Assembly (NCBI GenBank): GCA_021792955.1
Contig: JAJYTP010000003.1
Span: 18,037 to 82,036 of the forward strand
Direction of reading: 5' to 3'
Length of the DNA: 64,000 nt
Origin: an archaeon
Lineage (GTDB): Archaea > Thermoproteota > Nitrososphaeria > Conexivisphaerales > UBA164
The notes beneath the pieces were generated by a model. That model ran no database searches, was not told the DNA's origin, and worked only from the letters and a program-made list of their open reading frames with translations. Below are positions 2,517 to 43,966 of this stretch, one piece after another; within the stretch, counting starts at the first letter, position 1; every line of letters begins with the position of its first letter. Both the position numbers and the translations under genes were made by a program.

Positions 2517-3059
2517 TTGTCCGGTAATGGTGTTGATATACGAAAACAGGTCGATGACAACCGTGGCATAGCCAAAAAGCTTGAGCTTCTGGTGCCGGGA
2601 CTGAGGCAGTACAGGAAGACCGACGACCTCAGGGTGGCTGATGACCTCCTAAGGCATCAGGTGGCTGACAAGGTTGACCAGGCCAAAGCCAACCTTGAAG
2701 CCTACCGAAAGCAGATGGTCGTAGCCGGCGACTTTGCAAACCTTTCCTCTGTGGGATCCCTGATCTTCGAGCTTCAGGAACTGAGCGGAAAGGTGCGGTA
2801 CGCTCAGCAGGGTTACGCCCCCCTTGTTGCTGCGATAAGCATAAACGAGGACAAGCTTAACGCTCTTTACAATTATGATTACGAGTTCGTCAATTCTGCG
2901 CTGAGCCTGGTGGAAGCCACTTCAAAGCTCCAGTACGACCAGGCTGCGGCCCTTTCAAACAAGTCGTCACTTGATGCAGTTAGCTCGGCCATGGTTGACT
3001 TTAAAAGAAAGTGGTCGGTAAGGCTTGAAGCTATAGAAGGGGTATTGGTGACGGGGTGA
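2517..3059 (+). CDS. Hypothetical alpha-helical protein, first gene of the SPFH/Zn-ribbon module
   Basis: 180 aa with a TTG start. A TATA-like ttaatatatat lies about 25-30 nt upstream. There is no TM segment or recognisable motif. The stop is 9 nt before the next gene, which is preceded by GGTGA. Confidence 0.5.
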   Translation: MSGNGVDIRKQVDDNRGIAKKLELLVPGLRQYRKTDDLRVADDLLRHQVADKVDQAKANLEAYRKQMVVAGDFANLSSVGSLIFELQELSGKVRYAQQGYAPLVAAISINEDKLNALYNYDYEFVNSALSLVEATSKLQYDQAAALSNKSSLDAVSSAMVDFKRKWSVRLEAIEGVLVTG

Positions 3060-3068
3060 AATAGGTAG

Positions 3069-4235
3069 ATGGCAAACAAAAACGATATGTCAAAGGGTGG
3101 AAGCGTATTTGGCTCCACTACAATAAGCTGGGAGCCACAGTTCAAGGAGGGGAACGTCATGTGGAAGGTCCCCAGGCTGATCAGGCTAAACGACAATATA
3201 GTCGTGAGGGAGGACGAAATAGCGGTGTTCTATAGGGACGGAAAGGTCCTTACTTACTTCGATAAGCCTAACAGGTATGCGCTGAGCGATTTTAATGCGC
3301 CCATAGTCGGCAACCTTCTGAAGTTCTTCGTAGGGGTTCAGCAACAGGCTGAAGTATATTACCTGCAGAAGAGGTTCATGGACGGGAAGTTCGGAAGCAC
3401 AGAACCCTACCAGTTCGTGGATCAGATCTTTGGGATCATAAACCTCAGGGTTTTTGGAGAGTACAGGTGGAGGGTCTCCTCCCCCGAGAACTTCATAAAT
3501 CAGTTCGTGGGCACGTTCGCGGCTGAAACATCCGATGATGTGGAAAAGAGGCTTAAGGAGCAGATGGTCCTCCTGGTATATAATACGTTAGGAAAGATGA
3601 AACAGCAGGGGTTGAAGGTCACCGACCTTGCTTCCAGCCTAGCTACCATTGAGCAGGCGGTGCTTTCGGTTTCGCCGGACAACTTTGCCCAGTACGGGGT
3701 CGAGATCAATAAGGTATCCGGCCTTACGATAAGCCTCCCAGAGGAGGTGCAGAAGGCCGTGGATACACGCTCGGAGATGTCGGTACTCGGCGTCAATTAT
3801 CTCCAGTACCAGGCAGGTCAGGCAATGACCGACGCCGCCAAGAACCAGTCCGGAGGGGCAGGCGCCCTGGCCGGGATGGGGGTGGGCCTGGGTGCGGGGG
3901 CTGGAATAGGGTATGCGATGGGCGGCCAGGTGATGCAGGGCATGGGCCAGCAACAGCCAACCAAGACTTGCGTCAAATGTGGAAGCATAATACCGATGAC
4001 CGCCACTTTCTGTCCGAACTGCGGCGCCCCGCAGCCTCAGCCAGGCCAGCCACAGCAGACACAGGGGAACTGCCCAAAGTGCGGGTCCCCACTGCCCGCC
4101 GGCGTCAAGTTCTGTCCGAACTGCGGCGCCCCAGTAGGTCAGCCAGCGACGAAGGTGTGCCCGAACTGCGGTGCCATTGTGCCGGTCAATTCAAAGTTCT
4201 GCCCCAACTGCGGGAAGCCAATGGGGACCGGGTGA
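3069..4235 (+). CDS. SPFH/band-7 superfamily protein of the COG4260 (YdjI-like, 'virion core protein-like') type with glycine zipper and three C-terminal zinc ribbons
   Basis: 388 aa. The N-terminal roughly 250 aa look SPFH-like. They are followed by the Gly-zipper SGGAGALAGMGVGLGAGAGIGYAMGG. Three CxxC-x(9-11)-FCPNCG units come next (CVKCG..FCPNCG, CPKCG..FCPNCG, CPNCG..FCPNCG). Confidence 0.75.
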   Translation: MANKNDMSKGGSVFGSTTISWEPQFKEGNVMWKVPRLIRLNDNIVVREDEIAVFYRDGKVLTYFDKPNRYALSDFNAPIVGNLLKFFVGVQQQAEVYYLQKRFMDGKFGSTEPYQFVDQIFGIINLRVFGEYRWRVSSPENFINQFVGTFAAETSDDVEKRLKEQMVLLVYNTLGKMKQQGLKVTDLASSLATIEQAVLSVSPDNFAQYGVEINKVSGLTISLPEEVQKAVDTRSEMSVLGVNYLQYQAGQAMTDAAKNQSGGAGALAGMGVGLGAGAGIGYAMGGQVMQGMGQQQPTKTCVKCGSIIPMTATFCPNCGAPQPQPGQPQQTQGNCPKCGSPLPAGVKFCPNCGAPVGQPATKVCPNCGAIVPVNSKFCPNCGKPMGTG

Positions 4236-4255
4236 AGGGAGGGAGGTAGAGGAAG

Positions 4256-5275
4256 ATGATATATTGTGACAAGTGTGGAGCCGAACTGCCAGACGATGCA
4301 AAGTTCTGTTACAAGTGCGGGGCTCAGGTAGGAGCTCCAGCAACCGGGGCTCCTTCACAGGGGCAGAAGGGGCAGCCCAAGGCTCAGGAGAACATTCTGG
4401 CTCCGGCCGGCATAACTTCACTGAAGTGCCCCAGCTGCGGTGCACCAATTACACCGAAGTTCGGTGAAATGATCATTACGTGTGAGTACTGTGGAAGCAG
4501 CATAACCCTGGCAAACGATGGCTGGAAGAGCATCCAGAAGCATACTATGCTGCCCTTAAAGTTCGTCGATGAGGGCCAGGTGGAGGAAAGGGTGAAGAAG
4601 CTTATGGACAGGGGCCTGCTGCACAGGCATCTAGAGGAGAGCTCTGTAAAGGAGGAGTTCTCCCTGAGTTACATACCATACTGGGTTGTTACTGTATCAG
4701 CAAGGACAACCGTGACCAGCCAGAACGTGGCAGCGCAGGTGGGTCAGACCGCCACTGAAGCCGCTGTGTTCGGGATACTGCTGGGCGGAATGGGTGGAGG
4801 CTTCGGCGGAAGGAGGTTCATCTCTACGGGGAAGGGCTTCGGTCCCACCCTCTTTTTCATGGGTGGCTATGGTGGCGGCGGCAACGTCACGGTGAACACT
4901 ATCGACGCGAACTACAACTACCCTGTGATAGCGGTAAAATCGCTTATGGAGTATCAGCCGAAGAACTACGAATTTGCAATGAACGAAAGGGTGCTTTTCG
5001 ATGTTTCCAAGGTAAAGTCCATCAAGGTGTTAAACGGCGACTTGAGCGAAGATGCAGCCAAGGGCCAGGCAAGGACCCTGGTGGAGCAGCTGCAGAGCGA
5101 CAGGGCGCACAAGCAGTATCATATGATACAGAAGCTTCAAACGGAGGTCGAAGTATCAGAGGGTGAACTGCTGCACGCCCCGGTGTGGTTCGCGAGGTAT
5201 GACCACAAGGGGAAGAAGATAGTGTTGCTAATAGACGGCAACAGCGGGAACACCATAAATTCAATAGGCCTCTGA
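4256..5275 (+). CDS. Double zinc-ribbon protein with Gly-rich central segment (YdjG-like architecture)
   Basis: 339 aa. It has MIYCDKCGAELPDDAKFCYKCGA and CPSCGAPI..CEYCGSSI, a Gly-rich FGILLGGMGGGFGG...MGGYGGGG segment, and a C-terminal HAPVWFARYDHKGKKIVLLIDGNSGNTI. A strong purine-rich SD (GGAGGT) precedes the ATG. Confidence 0.65.
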   Translation: MIYCDKCGAELPDDAKFCYKCGAQVGAPATGAPSQGQKGQPKAQENILAPAGITSLKCPSCGAPITPKFGEMIITCEYCGSSITLANDGWKSIQKHTMLPLKFVDEGQVEERVKKLMDRGLLHRHLEESSVKEEFSLSYIPYWVVTVSARTTVTSQNVAAQVGQTATEAAVFGILLGGMGGGFGGRRFISTGKGFGPTLFFMGGYGGGGNVTVNTIDANYNYPVIAVKSLMEYQPKNYEFAMNERVLFDVSKVKSIKVLNGDLSEDAAKGQARTLVEQLQSDRAHKQYHMIQKLQTEVEVSEGELLHAPVWFARYDHKGKKIVLLIDGNSGNTINSIGL

Positions 5276-5881: not shown

Positions 5882-6162
5882 CTATGGTTACCCGATGGTG
5901 CCTGTTGTTCCATCGCCGTCCTGAGCGCCCTTAATCCTAACCTCATAACTCATGAGGGATATACTTTACATTAAGGATAAAAAGCTTTTTGCACGATTTT
6001 CCGCCCCGTTGGGCCGCTCGCAAGTAGATCGACAGGACAAGCTGCCTGCACATTTGGCTGTAAAAGGGATAGCCCTTATATACCAAAAAAACATTTTATA
6101 CCTAGGCCATGATCCATTTGATACTGGTCGCATGCTGCGACACTTTGGCGGACCAGTTCATG

Positions 6163-6238
6163 GGGCCGGTGGTGTAGCTTGGTCTTGCACATCGCTCTGA
6201 CACGGCGGAGATCCCAGGTTCAAATCCTGGCCGGCCCA
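6163..6238 (+). tRNA. tRNA-Val (anticodon GAC)
   Basis: I folded the cloverleaf by hand. The acceptor GGGCCGG pairs with CCGGCCC and the D-stem GTGT pairs with GCAC. The anticodon stem TCGCT/GGCGG closes the loop CTGACAC. The T-arm is CCAGG-TTCAAAT-CCTGG and the discriminator is A. No CCA is encoded. Confidence 0.85.
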
Positions 6239-6511
6239 TTCCTGGTTATGCATGCCTTGATGACCCTGCTTGTACATACGCTTGGCGTGCTAGATTGGCA
6301 TAAGGGGTTAATTTTTTACCGCTTATCAGAACGCTTCAGGAAGAGCGGCCGTTAATTTACTAGTGGACCAAACCGTATACCGTACGGGCATCGTCTTTAA
6401 GGGCAGGTATTTTTTTACTAATTTTCTTTGGATGGTACAGTGATCAGGATTTCTTAGTAATATAGGTAATCATGGAAATCTATATATACATGGTAATCCG
6501 GTACTACCAGT

Positions 6512-6984: not shown

Positions 6985-7656
6985 TCAGGCGGGCACAAGG
7001 TGGAGGATGGTACACGCCCCAAAGCTAACCCTGACGGTCTCCACCCGGTATGCCTTGCCTCTCGCATTCAATAGCATATCAGCAAGAAGCCGCTCCCATC
7101 CATCGTTTCTTCTTATATATCCCCAGAGGCGAGTTGACATATCCCTTGTATCAGGGTCAATATAGAGAAGAACCCTGAGCAGCTTTATCCACAGCTCCCA
7201 GAAAAGCCTGGCCGGCCAGCTGGGTATCGAGAAATCAAAGATGACCGCCTCGCCCCTTTCCCTGAGCACCCTATCTATGGTTGAAGCCAGCCGGTCAAGG
7301 GGGACGTATTTTGGAAGGTACCCTGATATAACTAGGTCAAATTTGTCGGGCGAAGGTTCAACGTCAAGGGCGTTCATGACATTTATTCGCACCCGAGCGT
7401 CCACGATTTCAGCCCTGTGCTTTGCCACCATGGATGGTGAGCTGTCGACCGCCATGATCGTGGCCGATGGAAAGAGTTTCAACAGCTCTCTGGTGATCAG
7501 GCCAGTACCGGAGGCCAGTTCAAGGATAGACGGGCTGCCGGGCTCATTGATCATGCTCAGCGCCTTCAGCCTCCACCTCCTGTCCTGATTCATGGTGGTA
7601 AGCTTGACTAGGGTGTCATACTTGGCGCCGACCCTCCTGAAGATCCCGTCGTCCAT
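6985..7656 (-). CDS. UbiE/COQ5-like class I SAM-dependent methyltransferase
   Basis: 223 aa. It has FRRVGAKYDTLVKLTTMNQDRRWR (a YD..N..RxWR-type N-terminus) and motif I ILELASGTGLITRELL. Confidence 0.6.
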   Translation of the reverse strand: MDDGIFRRVGAKYDTLVKLTTMNQDRRWRLKALSMINEPGSPSILELASGTGLITRELLKLFPSATIMAVDSSPSMVAKHRAEIVDARVRINVMNALDVEPSPDKFDLVISGYLPKYVPLDRLASTIDRVLRERGEAVIFDFSIPSWPARLFWELWIKLLRVLLYIDPDTRDMSTRLWGYIRRNDGWERLLADMLLNARGKAYRVETVRVSFGACTILHLVPA

Positions 7657-7671: not shown

Positions 7672-8952
7672 CTACTGCCCTGTTTGGGCTTCCTGTTCAC
7701 CGGGATAGGGTTCAACCCGCAGCACGATGCCATTGACGGCCACCACCTTAACCCGCCTGCCCTTGCCAATTTTTCCTGATGAAGAAAACGCCCGCCACCT
7801 GACGCCATCAATGGATACTTCGCCGTTTGGATCAATGTCCGTTGTGGCCAACCCGTTAACACCGATCATTGATTCACTACCGGTAAATACCTTATTCATC
7901 CTTATGAATCTGAAGGCCCGCCTGATATAGAAGGAAATGAAAACGCCAGCTATCAGTATAATTATTATCGATACGATCAGGTCCCAGCCGCTTGGAGCCG
8001 GAGAATACCCTATCCCCTGGTTTAGAAAATAGATTCCGGCAGCGCCGGTTGCTATCGCCGCGAGGAACGCCACACCATGCCCGGTCTTAAGCTCAACAAT
8101 GAGGAATACCGCAGCCAGCACCAGTATTACGATCCCGAGCGCGGACGCGCTTATCACTTCCGCCCCTATGAGCCCAAGCACTATGGCGATAACCCCGCCG
8201 ATGCTCAGTAGCACCGTCGGATGCAGCAGGTCCAGTATGATAGCTATCATGCCGATAAGTATGAGCACTCCATCGAGGGTGGAGTTGCTCAATGCGCTCA
8301 GGAACTGGTCATAGTAACTTTCGCCTACGGTGACCGAAGGGAGGCCGCCTATTCCCAGTGAGGCCTCCGCCACGGTGATATTGCTTGCTTCCCCGTTTAT
8401 GACATTGTACTGGAGCGCCTGGTTAGCTGAGTATGCCGTATCATATAACACCATGTTGTAGGCGGCCGTTGAATTCCTCCCCCACTCATTGGCCAATCCC
8501 ACCATCAGCTTTAGCATGGCATCTTCGGTGTGGTTCTGTTCCAGTGCCGTCCCGCCCACCACTATCGGAGTAGAAGGGCCGATTTCTGTTCCAGGCGCCA
8601 TCAATATCCTGTTGGTTGCCATGGAGATATAGCTGGCTGCCGATGCCGCAATGCCGTTCTGCGGGACATAGGTGTAAACCGATATTCCGGATTGATTGGC
8701 TAGGGTAATTGAATTTATTATGTCAAGCATGTCAGAAAGGTAGCCCCCGGGTGAATTCATGACTATGAGTATGGCTACGGCATGATCGTTAATGGCCGTG
8801 CCGACAGCCTGGCTCATCATCGCCGATGCTCCAGGGTCGACCGTATAGTCGAAATTTACAACCACGACCTTGGCAGGAGCCTGACTCCTCACGGTGGAAA
8901 TTGGGATTAGAACCAGCGTGATGATGATGACGGCAAACAGTAGCCGGTTCAT
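7672..8952 (-). CDS. nfeD: NfeD-family membrane-bound ClpP-class serine protease (stomatin operon partner, STOPP-like)
   Basis: 426 aa. It has a signal/TM segment, a ClpP-like region (VMNSPGGYL, AASAASYISMA), several TM helices and a C-terminal OB-like NfeD domain. It lies 6 nt downstream of the stomatin gene. Confidence 0.8.
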   Translation of the reverse strand: MNRLLFAVIIITLVLIPISTVRSQAPAKVVVVNFDYTVDPGASAMMSQAVGTAINDHAVAILIVMNSPGGYLSDMLDIINSITLANQSGISVYTYVPQNGIAASAASYISMATNRILMAPGTEIGPSTPIVVGGTALEQNHTEDAMLKLMVGLANEWGRNSTAAYNMVLYDTAYSANQALQYNVINGEASNITVAEASLGIGGLPSVTVGESYYDQFLSALSNSTLDGVLILIGMIAIILDLLHPTVLLSIGGVIAIVLGLIGAEVISASALGIVILVLAAVFLIVELKTGHGVAFLAAIATGAAGIYFLNQGIGYSPAPSGWDLIVSIIIILIAGVFISFYIRRAFRFIRMNKVFTGSESMIGVNGLATTDIDPNGEVSIDGVRWRAFSSSGKIGKGRRVKVVAVNGIVLRVEPYPGEQEAQTGQ

Positions 8953-8958
8953 AACGAC

Positions 8959-9813
8959 TTACTGCTGTGCTCCCTTTTCCTCTTGCTCCTTCTTCTTACT
9001 TCCCTTAGCCATAAGGTCCTTTACATCGAAGAGCCCAAGTGGAGATAGCCCGGCTGTAGGGATATTGGAGGGTATCATTACTAGTGAGCTGTTGGACCTG
9101 AGGCCAAGCTCATATAACATGTTCATCCATCTCAACTGAAACGCCAGTTCATTATTTTTGTACTGGTCAGCTGCCTGGACCATCTTCTCAGCTGCCTGTG
9201 ATTCTGCCAATGCGAGTGTGACCCTGGCCCTCCTTTCCCTTTCGGCCTGTGCCTGCGCCGACATGGCAGCCTGTAGCGAAGATGGTATCTTCAGGTCCCT
9301 GACCTCCACTGCGGTGACCTTTATTCCCCAGGATTCGGTCTTTTCGTCTATTATCCCCCTTACTATCGTTCCGATCTTCTCACGCTCGGCAAGAAGCTCG
9401 TCAAATACGGTCTGGCCTACCACCTCTCTCAGCGTGGTCTGAGCCGCATATTCCGTAGCAGCGCGATAGTTTTCGACGCTCAGGACGCTCTTCTGCACAT
9501 CGGCAGGCATGAAGTACATCACGGCGTCAACGTCCACTGGCACGTTATCCTTCGTCAGCGTCTGTTCGGTGACGAATGAATATACCTGTAATCTGGTCGA
9601 AATTTTTATTGGCATCTTGCTTATGAACGGAAATACGTATACGAGGCCTGGCCCCTTGATACCCATGAACCTCCCGAGGGTCAGAACAGGTGCCCTTTCC
9701 CATTCCCGTAGAATATGTAACCCGCTCAAGAATACGCCTACTACAACTACTATTATGAATATTGAGAAATAAAGTAATATATCTGACATATAAAGTATTA
9801 ACCCGCGGTTCAC
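8959..9813 (-). CDS. Stomatin/prohibitin-type SPFH (band 7) protein
   Basis: 284 aa. It has an N-terminal TM segment, then REWERAPVLTLGRF...GPGLVYVFPFI, a typical stomatin core, and a coiled AQAQAERERRA region. Confidence 0.85.
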   Translation of the reverse strand: MNRGLILYMSDILLYFSIFIIVVVVGVFLSGLHILREWERAPVLTLGRFMGIKGPGLVYVFPFISKMPIKISTRLQVYSFVTEQTLTKDNVPVDVDAVMYFMPADVQKSVLSVENYRAATEYAAQTTLREVVGQTVFDELLAEREKIGTIVRGIIDEKTESWGIKVTAVEVRDLKIPSSLQAAMSAQAQAERERRARVTLALAESQAAEKMVQAADQYKNNELAFQLRWMNMLYELGLRSNSSLVMIPSNIPTAGLSPLGLFDVKDLMAKGSKKKEQEEKGAQQ

Positions 9814-9970
9814 TATAAAAGGCTTTCCTAAGATTAAGCCAGCATAGCAATGTTCAACGGGCCGACAGAATTTTAATGGAACGCGTCAGCTGTAGAAAAG
9901 CCTTTTAATTTCAGCTAAACGCTCTCCCCTTGCCGAATCCCTTGGATAACTTCACGCTGCTGCCCCGAAT

Positions 9971-10369
9971 TTAATCGCCCAAATTTTCCATCGGCTTCTT
10001 GGAGAACAGGTTTTCCCTCAATTCCCTTTCTAATTCAGGATCGTTTCTTCTGAGCCATTCCAGCAGCAGTGAAAAGTGCTCCTTCTCATCGTCCCTATTA
10101 TGTTTCATCACAGCCTTCAGTGTTTCATCCTTGGTCGCGCTCGCCCTTTCATCATAAAACATGATGGCCTCTATTTCTTCAAGAAGTGACTGTCTGGCCC
10201 TGCTCAATTCGGCGGTCCTTTGATCCACATGTAAAATGTCTTCATATCTTGGCATACTGTTTAGCTCGGGATCAGCTCTCTTAAACCTTTCCAACGGCGG
10301 CTCTGGCCCCTTTGATAGTCCAATATATGGATGATCAGTGACCGCCGCCAATTGACCCTGGACTACCAT
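9971..10369 (-). CDS. Encapsulated-ferritin (EncFtn)-like ferritin-like protein, no obvious cargo-loading peptide
   Basis: 132 aa. EEIEAIMFYDERASATKDETLKAVMKHNRDDEKEHFSLLLEWLRRNDPELERELRENLF matches my recollection of the EncFtn family core (ExxE...Y, HNRDEEKEH, LEWLRR). The protein ends ...KKPMENLGD. Confidence 0.6.
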   Translation of the reverse strand: MVVQGQLAAVTDHPYIGLSKGPEPPLERFKRADPELNSMPRYEDILHVDQRTAELSRARQSLLEEIEAIMFYDERASATKDETLKAVMKHNRDDEKEHFSLLLEWLRRNDPELERELRENLFSKKPMENLGD

Positions 10370-10445: not shown

Positions 10446-12503
10446 CTAAATGCCCAGCTGTTGAAACATTTCACCTAGGTCGCCGGTTGGACGTTTGCAA
10501 AGCGTATCGGTGCAGACCCTGGCAATCGGCTCCTCTCCCCCGCCCTCAATGACATCTGTAAACGGCGCAAATTCAAGCCTGCCCTCCCGCGGCTTGTACA
10601 GGAGCATCTTATTGGGAAGGTACCGTTTCCTTAATGCCTCGGCCACTGGGCCTACGCGTCTTCCAGAACCTGTCAGAACCACCCTGTAAAGCGGGCCCAG
10701 TTCGGCATCCACCGCCTGCAGGAATCCAGTGTAAGAGGCAGGGTCCATCGCCGCTATTGATTTAGCCCATGAAAACGTCGACTCAAGCGCCCCCAGGTGG
10801 CTTTCCCTGTCGGTCATCCTTGCAATGTGCACCAGGTTCAGAGCGTGGATTGAATTACCAGAAGGCACGGCTCCATCGTACAGCTCCTTCTTCATGAAAG
10901 CCCTATCGGCGCTGAAATCCGGGATATTATAGAACCCACCTCCCTCCCTATCTAAGAAGTGTTTGATCGAAAAGTCAAGCAGCCTGATCGCCTCATCCAT
11001 GTACCTTTTCTCAAATGTGGCCTCGTAAAGCTCCCTCAGTCCCCAGCACAAATAGGCGTAATCATCAAGCAGCCCATTGATGGTGGCCGTATTATCCGCG
11101 TAAACATGATAAAGAGCTCCATCTCCAGCGACCAGTTTTGCCAGCACGAAATCCGCGCAACCCCTCGCCGCTTGCGCGTACCTGAAGTCGCCTATGGCCG
11201 AGTAGGCCTTTGAAAGGAAGGCTATGGCCATTCCATTGATATCGGACAGCACCTTTGTATCCGTCCTAGGCCTTATCCTCTCGCTTCTGCTTGCCAGCAG
11301 CCTTTTGGTTATGTCCAGGATCGTCCTGTTTAGCGCATCAGTTGTGAGGTTTAACCTTCCAGCAATGGCCTCCGGTGAATCGGCCAAGTAAAGCACGCTA
11401 GCCGGTTTGCCACCTCTTACGGCCACCTCAGCCGTGCCGAAGGCAGCCTTCGCCGGAGCCAGCAGCTCCGTGGGCAGTACCCTTTCTAACTCGGACCTGT
11501 CCCAGAGGTAGAACCTCCCCTCCTCCCCTTCGCTGTCGGCATCTATTGCGGTGTAGAAAGCGCCGTCGGGGGACTTGATCTCAGTGGAAACAAAATTGAA
11601 AATTTCGTTTACAACGGTTGCATACAGCTCGTTACCGGTTGCCTGGTATGCCTCTGCATAAATATAGCCCAGCAGTGCTTGATCGTACATCATCTTTTCA
11701 AAATGAGGCAGGAACCATTCTCTGTCGACCGCATAACGATGAAAGCCCCCTCCAAGCTGGTCAAATACGCCTCCCTTCCTCATGGCCATCAGCGTAGTTT
11801 CAACCATTTGCAGGGCCTCCGGGCTGTTGAACCGCCTCCAGTACCTCAGCAGGAACCCGAGCCTTTGGGCTGCTGGGAACTTGGGACCGGATCCAAACCC
11901 CCCAAACTCCCTATCAAAGGAGGAGCTCAGACTTTCAAAGGCGCCCTTCATCAGGGCGACGCCCTCAACAGTGGAAGGGTTGGCATTGGCCACTTCATTG
12001 CCGTAATTGGGCGCCCCTCTGGCATCCATAAGTAATGGTGACCTATCGCGCCAGGCCTTGATCACCATAGGAAGGAGTTCCATTAACCCAATCATCCCTC
12101 CCCTAGAACTTTTCGGGATATAGGTGGCCGCGAAGACTACCACCTTGTCAGGGGTCATAATGATGGTCATGGGCCAGCCGCCCGACCCCGTTGATGAAAC
12201 ACATATGTCCATAAAGTGGCTGTCAAGGTCCGGCCTTTCCTCCCTGTCTATCAGTATGGCAATGAAGTGATCGTTGATCAGTCCGGCCACACCTTCATCC
12301 ATGAACGATTCCCTTTCCATGACATGGCACCAGTGGCAGGAAAGGTACCCTATGGATATGAATAGCAGCTTCCCCTCTGACCTAGCCTTCTCTAACGCTT
12401 CTTCGCCCCAAGGATACCAGCATACCAGGTCCTTCGTATGGTCCTGCAGGTAAGGGCTGTGCGACCCCTCCAAATGCGTGTTTCCCCCCGCGCCTGCCTT
12501 CAA
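10446..12503 (-). CDS. Thioredoxin-domain protein of the DUF255/YyaL (SPATA20-like) family
   Basis: 685 aa. It has N-terminal GYLSCHWCHVMERESF (thioredoxin-like CxxC) followed by a long alpha/alpha-toroid-like region, the typical architecture and length. Confidence 0.8.
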   Translation of the reverse strand: MKAGAGGNTHLEGSHSPYLQDHTKDLVCWYPWGEEALEKARSEGKLLFISIGYLSCHWCHVMERESFMDEGVAGLINDHFIAILIDREERPDLDSHFMDICVSSTGSGGWPMTIIMTPDKVVVFAATYIPKSSRGGMIGLMELLPMVIKAWRDRSPLLMDARGAPNYGNEVANANPSTVEGVALMKGAFESLSSSFDREFGGFGSGPKFPAAQRLGFLLRYWRRFNSPEALQMVETTLMAMRKGGVFDQLGGGFHRYAVDREWFLPHFEKMMYDQALLGYIYAEAYQATGNELYATVVNEIFNFVSTEIKSPDGAFYTAIDADSEGEEGRFYLWDRSELERVLPTELLAPAKAAFGTAEVAVRGGKPASVLYLADSPEAIAGRLNLTTDALNRTILDITKRLLASRSERIRPRTDTKVLSDINGMAIAFLSKAYSAIGDFRYAQAARGCADFVLAKLVAGDGALYHVYADNTATINGLLDDYAYLCWGLRELYEATFEKRYMDEAIRLLDFSIKHFLDREGGGFYNIPDFSADRAFMKKELYDGAVPSGNSIHALNLVHIARMTDRESHLGALESTFSWAKSIAAMDPASYTGFLQAVDAELGPLYRVVLTGSGRRVGPVAEALRKRYLPNKMLLYKPREGRLEFAPFTDVIEGGGEEPIARVCTDTLCKRPTGDLGEMFQQLGI

Positions 12504-12649: not shown

Positions 12650-13312
12650 ATGCCCGTTGATACGAACGTAAGGACCACCTTTGCGTCCATAAGCGATAAG
12701 TATGACAGGATGAACAGGCTTCTGTCGCTATTTATGGACGACGCATGGAGAAGACATATGCTGGCAATGCTTCCTCATACGGGTACCATATTGGATGTGG
12801 GATGCGGCACCGGAAGGCTGGAATACCTTTTACATAAAGATGAGCGCTGGAGAGTGGTCGGGGTTGACCTGACTGCGGAGATGCTCAGGTTAAATGGATA
12901 CGCGGAAGGCGGGATAGTCCAGGGGTCTGCCACTCTCCTCCCTTTCAGGGACAACAGCTTTGCCGGGCTCATGAGCGCCTTTGTCCTCAGGAACCTTCCA
13001 TCTACCCGTGACTTCTTTGCTGAGGCATGGCGCGTGACCAGGAAGGACGGCCACCTTCTCACCCTGGATATACTTCCCACAAGGGGGCGCATCACGGGGA
13101 TACCATTTGAACTGTACTTTTACAGGATGGCCCCATTTATGGCCGACCGTATTTCGGGGACAACGGCGTACAGCTACCTGGCCAGGAGCGTCCAGGGCTT
13201 CAAATACATAGATGAGCTGCTGCTAGAAATTTCAGCTGCAGGCTTTGAGCAGAACGTTGTAAAGTCCTTCAGGGGAACGCATGTGTTCCTGATAGACTCA
13301 AAAAAGGCCTAA
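12650..13312 (+). CDS. ubiE: Demethylmenaquinone/ubiquinone-type methyltransferase (UbiE/MenG family)
   Basis: 220 aa. It has FASISDKYDRMNRLLSLFMDDAWRR and motif I ILDVGCGTGRL. Confidence 0.65.
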   Translation: MPVDTNVRTTFASISDKYDRMNRLLSLFMDDAWRRHMLAMLPHTGTILDVGCGTGRLEYLLHKDERWRVVGVDLTAEMLRLNGYAEGGIVQGSATLLPFRDNSFAGLMSAFVLRNLPSTRDFFAEAWRVTRKDGHLLTLDILPTRGRITGIPFELYFYRMAPFMADRISGTTAYSYLARSVQGFKYIDELLLEISAAGFEQNVVKSFRGTHVFLIDSKKA

Positions 13313-43276: not shown

Positions 43277-43966
43277 TCATCTCCCCTTTTCCTTTATCCG
43301 TAGTATACCATCGACTAACCCCTCTACTGCCTTTACCGGGTCAGTGCTCTTCATGACAGCCGATGCCATGGCCGCCCCATCGGCCCCCAACTCAATGGAC
43401 CTGTAGACGTCTTCGCCCGTGACTATACCGGCACCGGCTAGGAGGAACACCTTTCCACCTTGTCTGTTGGCATCCACGGCCCTGGTTATAACTTCGGGTT
43501 TTTCCCTGGATATTGCCCTTCCGGTGCCAATGAGTTCAGGCGGTTCGATCAGGAGCGCCGTTGGCTTGAGAAGCCCGACCGGAGCCACCAGTTCGTACCG
43601 GTCCACGCATACAACGCTTTCCAGCCCGGATTCCTTCATCATATTTATAGCATCCGAAAGTTCGGAGAGCTTCATACTTCTTTCGCTGTGGTTTAGGATT
43701 GATCCCTTGGCGCCGGCCTCCTTTATGAGCTCGGGGATTATGCTCCCCGTGGCAGCCCCGAGGGGCGACGCATCTACATGCTGAGCGAACACCGGTATCG
43801 ATATCTCGTCCGCCAGCCTGCTTATCATGGTCGCCGGCACGGAAATTATTATATCCACTGACCGCTCAAGGCTTATCCTCTCCAAGATGCGGGAGAACTC
43901 TATGGCTCCTTCTCCGTATGAATTTCTATACAGCTTAAAGTTTATCAAAAGTAATGGTGGCTTCAC
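43277..43966 (-). CDS. tpiA: Triosephosphate isomerase, archaeal type
   Basis: 229 aa. It has LLINFKLY, GSILNHSERSMKL, IEPPELIGTG and AGAGIVTGEDV. Confidence 0.85.
   Translation of the reverse strand: MKPPLLLINFKLYRNSYGEGAIEFSRILERISLERSVDIIISVPATMISRLADEISIPVFAQHVDASPLGAATGSIIPELIKEAGAKGSILNHSERSMKLSELSDAINMMKESGLESVVCVDRYELVAPVGLLKPTALLIEPPELIGTGRAISREKPEVITRAVDANRQGGKVFLLAGAGIVTGEDVYRSIELGADGAAMASAVMKSTDPVKAVEGLVDGILRIKEKGR

Follow-up and report, generated by a model that had tools for sequence, protein, structure and literature searches.

The 64-kb window considered here (the whole stretch of DNA analysed) belongs to a Nitrososphaerota MAG and carries on its minus strand a small gene for a protein related to encapsulated ferritin (EncFtn), with a gene for a DUF255/thioredoxin-domain protein upstream and genes for a stomatin/SPFH protein and an NfeD1b protein downstream (Table 1). 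The initial annotation had named these neighbours correctly, as the Pfam matches confirm, and had placed the DNA in Thermoplasmata, which was a mistake, even though Thermoplasmata do carry orthologues of the gene. Its figure of 157 nt between the EncFtn-like gene and the stomatin gene holds if the latter is read as the longest ORF, from the GTG at 9813, but the database calls use the ATG at 9789, from which the gap is 181 nt.

Table 1. Features of the EncFtn-like locus and of other parts of the window (positions in the 64-kb window)
Feature	Position	Strand	Description and evidence
Third UbiE/COQ5-type methyltransferase	near 1.6-2.2 kb		annotation of the equivalent contig
Unannotated ORF	2517..3059		180 aa; precedes the second SPFH gene
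Second SPFH protein	3069..4235	+	388 aa; Band_7_1 domain, then three zinc ribbons
Double-zinc-ribbon protein	4256..5275	+	339 aa; directly after the second SPFH gene
tRNA-Val (GAC)	6163..6238	+	sole RNA gene found in the window
UbiE/COQ5-type methyltransferase	6985..7656	-	paralogue of the gene at 12650..13312
NfeD1b	7672..8952	-	ClpP-like N-domain, membrane domain, C-terminal NfeD OB domain; Pfam NfeD1b_N, NfeD_membrane, NfeD
Stomatin/SPFH	8959..9789	-	276-aa gene call; longest ORF to GTG 9813; Pfam Band_7, E=1e-32
TATA-like TTTATA	9814..9819	-	30 nt upstream of the stomatin ATG 9789; read from sequence
132-aa ORF	9971..10369	-	EncFtn-like gene as first called
EncFtn-like s-FLP CDS	9971..10255	-	94 aa, stop included; MPRYEDILHVDQ...LFSKKPMENLGD; Pfam, PDB, homologue lengths, NCBI call, AF2/Foldseek
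C-terminal LGD	9974..9982	-	conserved tail of the archaeal clade
38-codon 'N-terminal extension'	10256..10369	-	noncoding; 5' flank and promoter region; DNA comparison with relatives
TATA-like box TTTAAG	10280..10285	-	begins 30 nt upstream of ATG 10255; read from sequence
Purine-rich GAAAGG	10286..10291	-	precedes TTTAAG; read from sequence
DUF255/thioredoxin-domain protein	10446..12503	-	685 aa; upstream; Pfam Thioredox_DsbH, E=5.7e-59
UbiE/COQ5-type methyltransferase	12650..13312	+	paralogue of the gene at 6985..7656
Triosephosphate isomerase	43277..43966		window copy

The EncFtn-like gene was first described as encoding a product of 132 residues. That ORF is present, as are the motifs quoted from it (EEIEA..FY, HNRDDEKEH and LEWLRRNDP) and its C-terminal end LFSKKPMENLGD, but its first 38 residues do not belong to the gene. 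Judged from homologue lengths and DNA comparisons, the true product is a protein of 94 residues that starts at Met39 of the ORF, with its ATG at 10255. Exactly this length is found in 99 of the 120 homologue clusters listed as best matches, where the 94-residue proteins start with MP[RKMI][YF]E and finish with [ED]LGD, and the identical 94-residue protein is annotated by NCBI as 'ferritin' in three assemblies. Against the two nearest relatives the 285-nt coding sequence is 96.5–98% identical, while the 114 nt of the extension are 84–88% identical at the DNA level and contain in-frame stops and indels; among the matches listed, the 38 residues are missing from nearly all homologues (about 100). 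Because of the stops and indels in close relatives and the absence from homologues, we regard the 38 codons as noncoding, and this also rules out the idea that the extension (…HPYIGLSKGPEP…) acts as an N-terminal targeting peptide.

The stretch so removed from the coding sequence holds a candidate promoter. The TATA-like TTTAAG and the purine-rich GAAAGG that precedes it both lie inside the claimed extension, and a TTTAA[AGT] element occurs at an equal distance from the start in the related Nitrososphaeria loci L004–L016. As the spacing is the usual one between TATA box and start in archaea, we infer that TTTAAG serves as an archaeal promoter giving a leaderless or near-leaderless mRNA.

The assignment of the protein to the EncFtn family, proposed in the initial annotation from motifs, is right, because the profile and PDB matches lie far beyond chance. 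Pfam PF22277 (EncFtn-like) matches residues 44–123 of the 132-residue ORF over 80 of its 85 profile positions (E=1.7e-29; 101.9 bits against a cutoff of 27). EncFtn structures in the PDB match at E=1e-22 to 1e-18, the best by sequence being the 95-residue protein NE0167 of Nitrosomonas europaea (3k6c; E=1.2e-22); for encapsulated ferritin of R. rubrum (5da5) the match is at E=7e-19. The AF2 model of the 94-residue monomer (pLDDT 92; helices 12–40, 44–71 and 73–82) aligns in Foldseek with 3k6c, 5da5 and 5n5f at TM 0.85–0.87, with the value of 0.87 for 3k6c, and with an rmsd of 1.3–1.5 Å. As these superpositions cover 86–90 of the 94 residues, there is no room for a disordered tag.

The metal ligands are equally well preserved. 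Eight residues (E26, E27, Y34, H52, D56, E57, E59 and H60) are invariant in the 33 clade members aligned and correspond in the alignment to E31, E32, Y39, H57, E61, E62, E64 and H65, respectively, of the R. rubrum protein. Among them, Glu27, Glu57 and His60, the last two forming the ExxH motif, match the ferroxidase ligands, with Tyr34 in the place of Tyr39; E26 matches the entry site, and H52, D56 and E59 match the secondary site. Two further positions, those of R. rubrum Trp38 and Glu34, are known to throttle iron flow in that protein (10.1101/785121). The former is Phe in 33 of the 33 aligned members and Trp or Tyr in Micrarchaeota-type loci; the latter is Glu or Gln in the clade. The 94-residue protein also has a weak resemblance to the Rubrerythrin and COQ7 profiles.

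No loading peptide had been seen at the C-terminus, and this observation stands. Like its archaeal homologues, the protein stops nine residues beyond the core's conserved LF, and it contains no match to the targeting motif [LF]x[VI]xx[LI] (e.g. SLGIGSLK). The motif is likewise absent from all archaeal proteins compared (0 of 47), whereas it is found in 23 of the 25 bacterial proteins with an adjacent shell gene; these shell-linked bacterial proteins have tails of 27–64 residues ending in GSLGIGSL[KR]. Nor is the protein fused to a shell protein, since its reading frame ends after residue 94 and the gene that follows encodes stomatin.

The claim that no HK97-fold shell gene lies within the 64 kb was likewise upheld. 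For the comparison across genomes, a scan of a genome collection yielded 80 loci, each with flanks of at most 10 kb. An encapsulin HMM was built from the products of 13 genes that lie just downstream of bacterial homologues, and one of these products was confirmed as Linocin_M18 (E=1.9e-81). In 25 bacterial loci this HMM detects an encapsulin gene immediately after the EncFtn gene (E<1e-100), and it has no match in the six-frame translations of the 47 archaeal loci (within 10 kb) or of the 64-kb window. Across the window, Pfam also reports no Linocin_M18, HK97, ferritin or Dps family; this coverage combines the precomputed annotation of equivalent contigs (window 0–59 kb) with direct Pfam searches of ORFs lacking annotation and of the final 5 kb. 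Several ORFs in the window have no Pfam match.

Among the bacterial loci, four from Acidimicrobiia (L056, L061, L064 and L074) encode an EncFtn protein with a clear targeting peptide of the GSLGIGSLRS type and have no encapsulin gene within 10 kb, so that the shell is either encoded elsewhere or lost. In L056 and L074 the EncFtn match lies at about 10001..10340, and L056 also contains a 50-aa fragment with a marginal match to the encapsulin HMM (E=0.056).

The initial annotation implied that an EncFtn-like gene with neither tag nor shell falls outside the known arrangements, but short forms of this kind are a described class. A 2024 review distinguishes four EncFtn classes, of which the s-FLPs are short, lack a long C-terminus and have no apparent targeting peptide, with NE0167/3k6c as the type; they are described there as predominantly bacterial and decameric, and an undefined short tail is the route by which they 'can theoretically be encapsulated'. 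The 3k6c structure itself stems from unpublished structural-genomics work. The window protein resembles NE0167 in length (about 95 aa), in fold and in lacking both a long disordered tail and a targeting peptide, although the two are only about 45% identical, and its archaeal tail KxxxxLGD differs from the bacterial putative consensus given in the review, LFT(D/E/N)KPIAHE. With the targeting-peptide-bearing (FLP-TP) proteins of R. rubrum (Rru_A0973, 5da5) and Haliangium ochraceum (5n5f) it shares the fold, the di-iron ligands and the secondary metal-site residues; unlike them it has no tail of 30–45 residues ending in GSLGIGSL[KR] and no downstream Linocin_M18 gene, and it scores 93.3 bits against NCBIfam TIGR04535 ('encapsulin-associated ferritin-like protein'), below the cutoff of 125. 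The archaeal Flp-fusion encapsulins (Pyrococcus furiosus PfV, 2e0z/5n5e; Sulfolobales) also contain an archaeal EncFtn domain, but theirs is fused to an HK97-fold shell, and their sequence match to the window protein is weak (E=0.002–0.02). Dps and Dps-like mini-ferritins are comparable in that a small ferritin-superfamily protein is proposed to detoxify iron and peroxide; their 12-mers close into a cage that has a cavity for storage, whereas the EncFtn fold gives an open ring without a cavity, and they have no family-level sequence relationship to the 94-residue protein.

In a profile search of 1.84 billion representatives the whole archaeal clade falls into one 50% cluster at 163 bits, and the next matches, at 108 bits or less, are bacterial s-FLPs ending ...LFTDKPIAHE/G/D, which are thus the nearest relatives outside the clade. 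A neighbour-joining tree without bootstrap sets the archaeal clade apart both from NE0167 and from the bacterial group that bears targeting peptides. Taking the 50% cluster, the rank of the bacterial s-FLPs and the tree together, the window gene is, on these comparisons, an archaeal, LGD-tailed member of the known s-FLP class. A non-encapsulated Flp class with NE0167 was reportedly recognised by Giessen and Silver as early as 2017. Many of the bacterial s-FLPs among the representative hits (P0121–P0132) carry N-terminal extensions of 35–150 residues ahead of the conserved start M(A/S)NEGYHEP, and these look like over-called ORFs similar to the 132-residue call in the window.

Identical or near-identical proteins occur in Nitrososphaerota MAGs (e.g. 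isolate FK4_bin.88), the next relatives (70–76% identity) in Nitrososphaeria and Conexivisphaerales MAGs, and the Thermoplasmata orthologues are 64–70% identical. Overall the clade spans Nitrososphaeria, Thermoproteales, Marsarchaeota, Thermoplasmata, Micrarchaeota and Parvarchaeota, and named acidophiles with the gene include Ferroplasma, Acidiplasma, Picrophilus, Thermoplasma volcanium, Thermocladium, Marsarchaeota and Acidifodinimicrobium; the names of organisms and isolates indicate acidic, iron-rich habitats. The tail of the archaeal proteins has the consensus LFSKKxLxxLGD, and its final LGD is conserved like the catalytic core, in about 110 of the 120 clusters listed as best matches, with LWD in its place in Micrarchaeota-type sequences and no such tail in the Parvarchaeota members (Acidifodinimicrobium; 86–87 aa). 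So conserved an xxLGD terminus hints at a binding partner. Our search of the literature on Ferroplasma and Thermoplasma ferritin and on stand-alone or orphan EncFtn returned no characterisation of the archaeal proteins, and a tight, LGD-ended archaeal clade in acidophiles of several lineages may be new.

The neighbourhood of the gene changes from lineage to lineage. Adjacent stomatin, NfeD and DUF255 genes are confined to loci at 96% identity or more (L001–L003; tblastn and phmmer), and the loci L082–L084, which encode the identical 94-residue protein, show the same gene order as the window. At thresholds of E<=1e-5 (tblastn) and E<=0.01 (phmmer), none of the three is found within 10 kb of the gene in the other 44 archaeal and 34 bacterial loci (78 in total). 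The initial annotation had named conservation of the adjacency to stomatin and NfeD, and co-occurrence of tag-less EncFtn-like genes with stomatin/NfeD or DUF255 genes, as tests of the link; neither holds outside the close lineage. In related Nitrososphaeria the EncFtn-like gene is followed by the gene for triosephosphate isomerase, which in the window lies more than 30 kb away (Table 1), and in other lineages the neighbours, among them RadA, PCNA, TrpRS and ABC transporters, are mostly housekeeping genes. Over 81 loci, a clustering of every ORF lying within 10 kb of the gene gave no recurrent clusters other than promiscuous ABC ATPases, housekeeping genes specific to a lineage, a sugar-type MFS transporter (six loci) and a superoxide dismutase (SOD; three Parvarchaeota loci), so that no partner gene common to the lineages emerged within that distance, and no rubredoxin or reductase partner was found near the gene. 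The SOD, a divergent neighbour of the Fe/Mn type, was located in L031 (217..828, minus strand), L034 and L036.

Within the close lineage, too, the sequence points to two transcription units. The TTTATA upstream of the stomatin ATG suggests a separate unit for stomatin, and the stomatin and EncFtn-like genes thus appear to have separate promoters. In L003, the 96% relative (region 3896..4595), homology to the window ends about 150 nt past the EncFtn-like stop, shortly before the stomatin TATA box, and a transposase-like ORF runs from the break to the contig end; the break probably reflects either the insertion of an IS or a repeat at which the assembly broke off. Stomatin and NfeD genes form a widespread two-gene operon. 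Since the adjacency is kept only in the close lineage, stomatin has its own TATA box and homology in L003 breaks off between the genes, the proposed link fails, and we conclude from these genomic comparisons that stomatin and NfeD1b are not functionally linked to the EncFtn-like gene.

We propose that the protein is probably a free cytoplasmic ferroxidase, decameric and expressed from its own promoter, that detoxifies Fe(II) and oxidants without a shell. Its two-helix hairpins would pair into four-helix dimers, each holding a symmetric di-iron ferroxidase centre formed by Glu27, Glu57 and His60 with Tyr34 nearby, and five dimers would close into an open ring with five di-iron centres, as in the homologous crystal structures 3k6c and 5da5. 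The predicted promoter would yield a single-gene, probably leaderless transcript. Free in the cytoplasm, the protein would use O2 or peroxide to oxidise Fe(II) and thereby lessen Fenton chemistry, in archaea whose habitats are acidic and rich in metals. With no protein shell and no cavity, it would act as a detoxifying ferroxidase and not as a storage organelle. Such a role would suit the report that Dps and Dps-like proteins are not widespread in acidophilic Euryarchaeota, where another protein may replace them (PMC8773360), and we count the SOD neighbour in Parvarchaeota as a link to oxidative stress. Isolated EncFtn keeps its ferroxidase activity (10.1101/431494; 10.1101/785121). It cannot, however, keep oxidised iron soluble (10.1101/431494; PMC8346489), and for this reason a ferroxidase that has no shell does not account for the Fe(III) sink. 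The question of where the mineral goes, raised in the initial annotation, is therefore a legitimate one, and it applies to the whole s-FLP class; here the Fe(III) product might pass to soluble chelators, to polyphosphate or to export.

Other readings meet obstacles in the comparisons above. It is very unlikely that the protein is cargo for an encapsulin encoded elsewhere in the genome, with the KxxxxLGD tail as a non-canonical docking peptide displayed ten per ring. The strong conservation of the terminal LGD or LWD would fit, the 2024 review allows for the theoretical encapsulation of s-FLP decamers through the short tail, and, as the tagged Acidimicrobiia proteins have no shell gene within 10 kb, distant shells do occur; yet no encapsulin lies within 10 kb in any of the 47 archaeal loci, the hydrophobic targeting motif is not matched, the Parvarchaeota members do entirely without the tail, and the score of 93 bits falls short of the cutoff for encapsulin-associated FLPs. 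Moreover, the Tardisphaera isolates (formerly Marsarchaeota) have FLP genes and no encapsulin shell gene (PMC12542729), and the Family 1 systems that have so far been described from archaea are Flp fusions (PMC8346489). We think it similarly improbable that the 94-residue clade supplies the cargo or a structural unit for a non-HK97 protein compartment, as yet unrecognised, in acidophilic archaea, that is, the iron-oxidising component of a non-encapsulin nanocompartment, with LGD set around the decameric ring; such a nanocompartment might correspond to the intracellular particles of 35–40 nm seen in Tardisphaera, where ferritin-like genes occur without an encapsulin (PMC12542729). Marsarchaeota MAGs of the same order as Tardisphaera carry the 94-residue family, the conserved LGD is without an explanation, and the window contains several ORFs without a Pfam match, but no gene co-occurs with it across lineages within 10 kb, the Tardisphaera FLPs may not belong to the 94-residue family, and the particles are uncharacterised.

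The idea that a stomatin/NfeD membrane cage serves as the iron sink and works with the EncFtn-like protein started from the adjacency of the genes on the same strand, where a gap of 157–181 nt separates them both in the window and in loci of 98% identity or more. We consider it almost certainly wrong, given the 78 loci outside the close lineage in which no stomatin, NfeD or DUF255 gene lies within 10 kb, the place of the gene before triosephosphate isomerase in related Nitrososphaeria, the TATA box of stomatin itself, the break in L003 and the general occurrence of stomatin and NfeD as a two-gene operon. Less remote, though still unlikely, is a different di-iron chemistry, such as rubrerythrin-like peroxide reduction, iron sensing or iron chaperoning, in place of bulk Fe(II) oxidation. 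The weak resemblance to Rubrerythrin and COQ7 profiles points in this direction, as do the altered entry-site positions (W38 to F; E34 as E or Q) and the presence of the gene in relatives of strictly anaerobic fermenters; against it, the ligands of the ferroxidase centre and the secondary site all match those of characterised EncFtn ferroxidases, and no rubredoxin or reductase partner is encoded nearby.

The working rule of the field is that EncFtn needs an encapsulin shell for iron storage, and the short, shell-less forms are a recognised class that is biochemically uncharacterised. Should the archaeal protein be the main ferroxidase in the cytoplasm of these organisms, it would close a gap in models of how acidophiles handle iron and oxidative stress, and it would offer a convenient small model of EncFtn chemistry without a shell. 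For the window itself, the analysis corrects the gene model and the taxon and removes the stomatin/NfeD hypothesis.

Other features of the window deserve brief mention. About 5 kb from the stomatin/NfeD pair, and distinct from it, lies a Band_7_1 SPFH module, in which a second SPFH gene is preceded by an unannotated ORF and followed by a gene for a double-zinc-ribbon protein. The small ORFs called at 5952..6355 are spurious, as they overlap the tRNA-Val gene. Finally, the block of DUF255, EncFtn-like, stomatin and NfeD genes is flanked by two UbiE/COQ5-type methyltransferase paralogues, and a third lies towards the start of the window.
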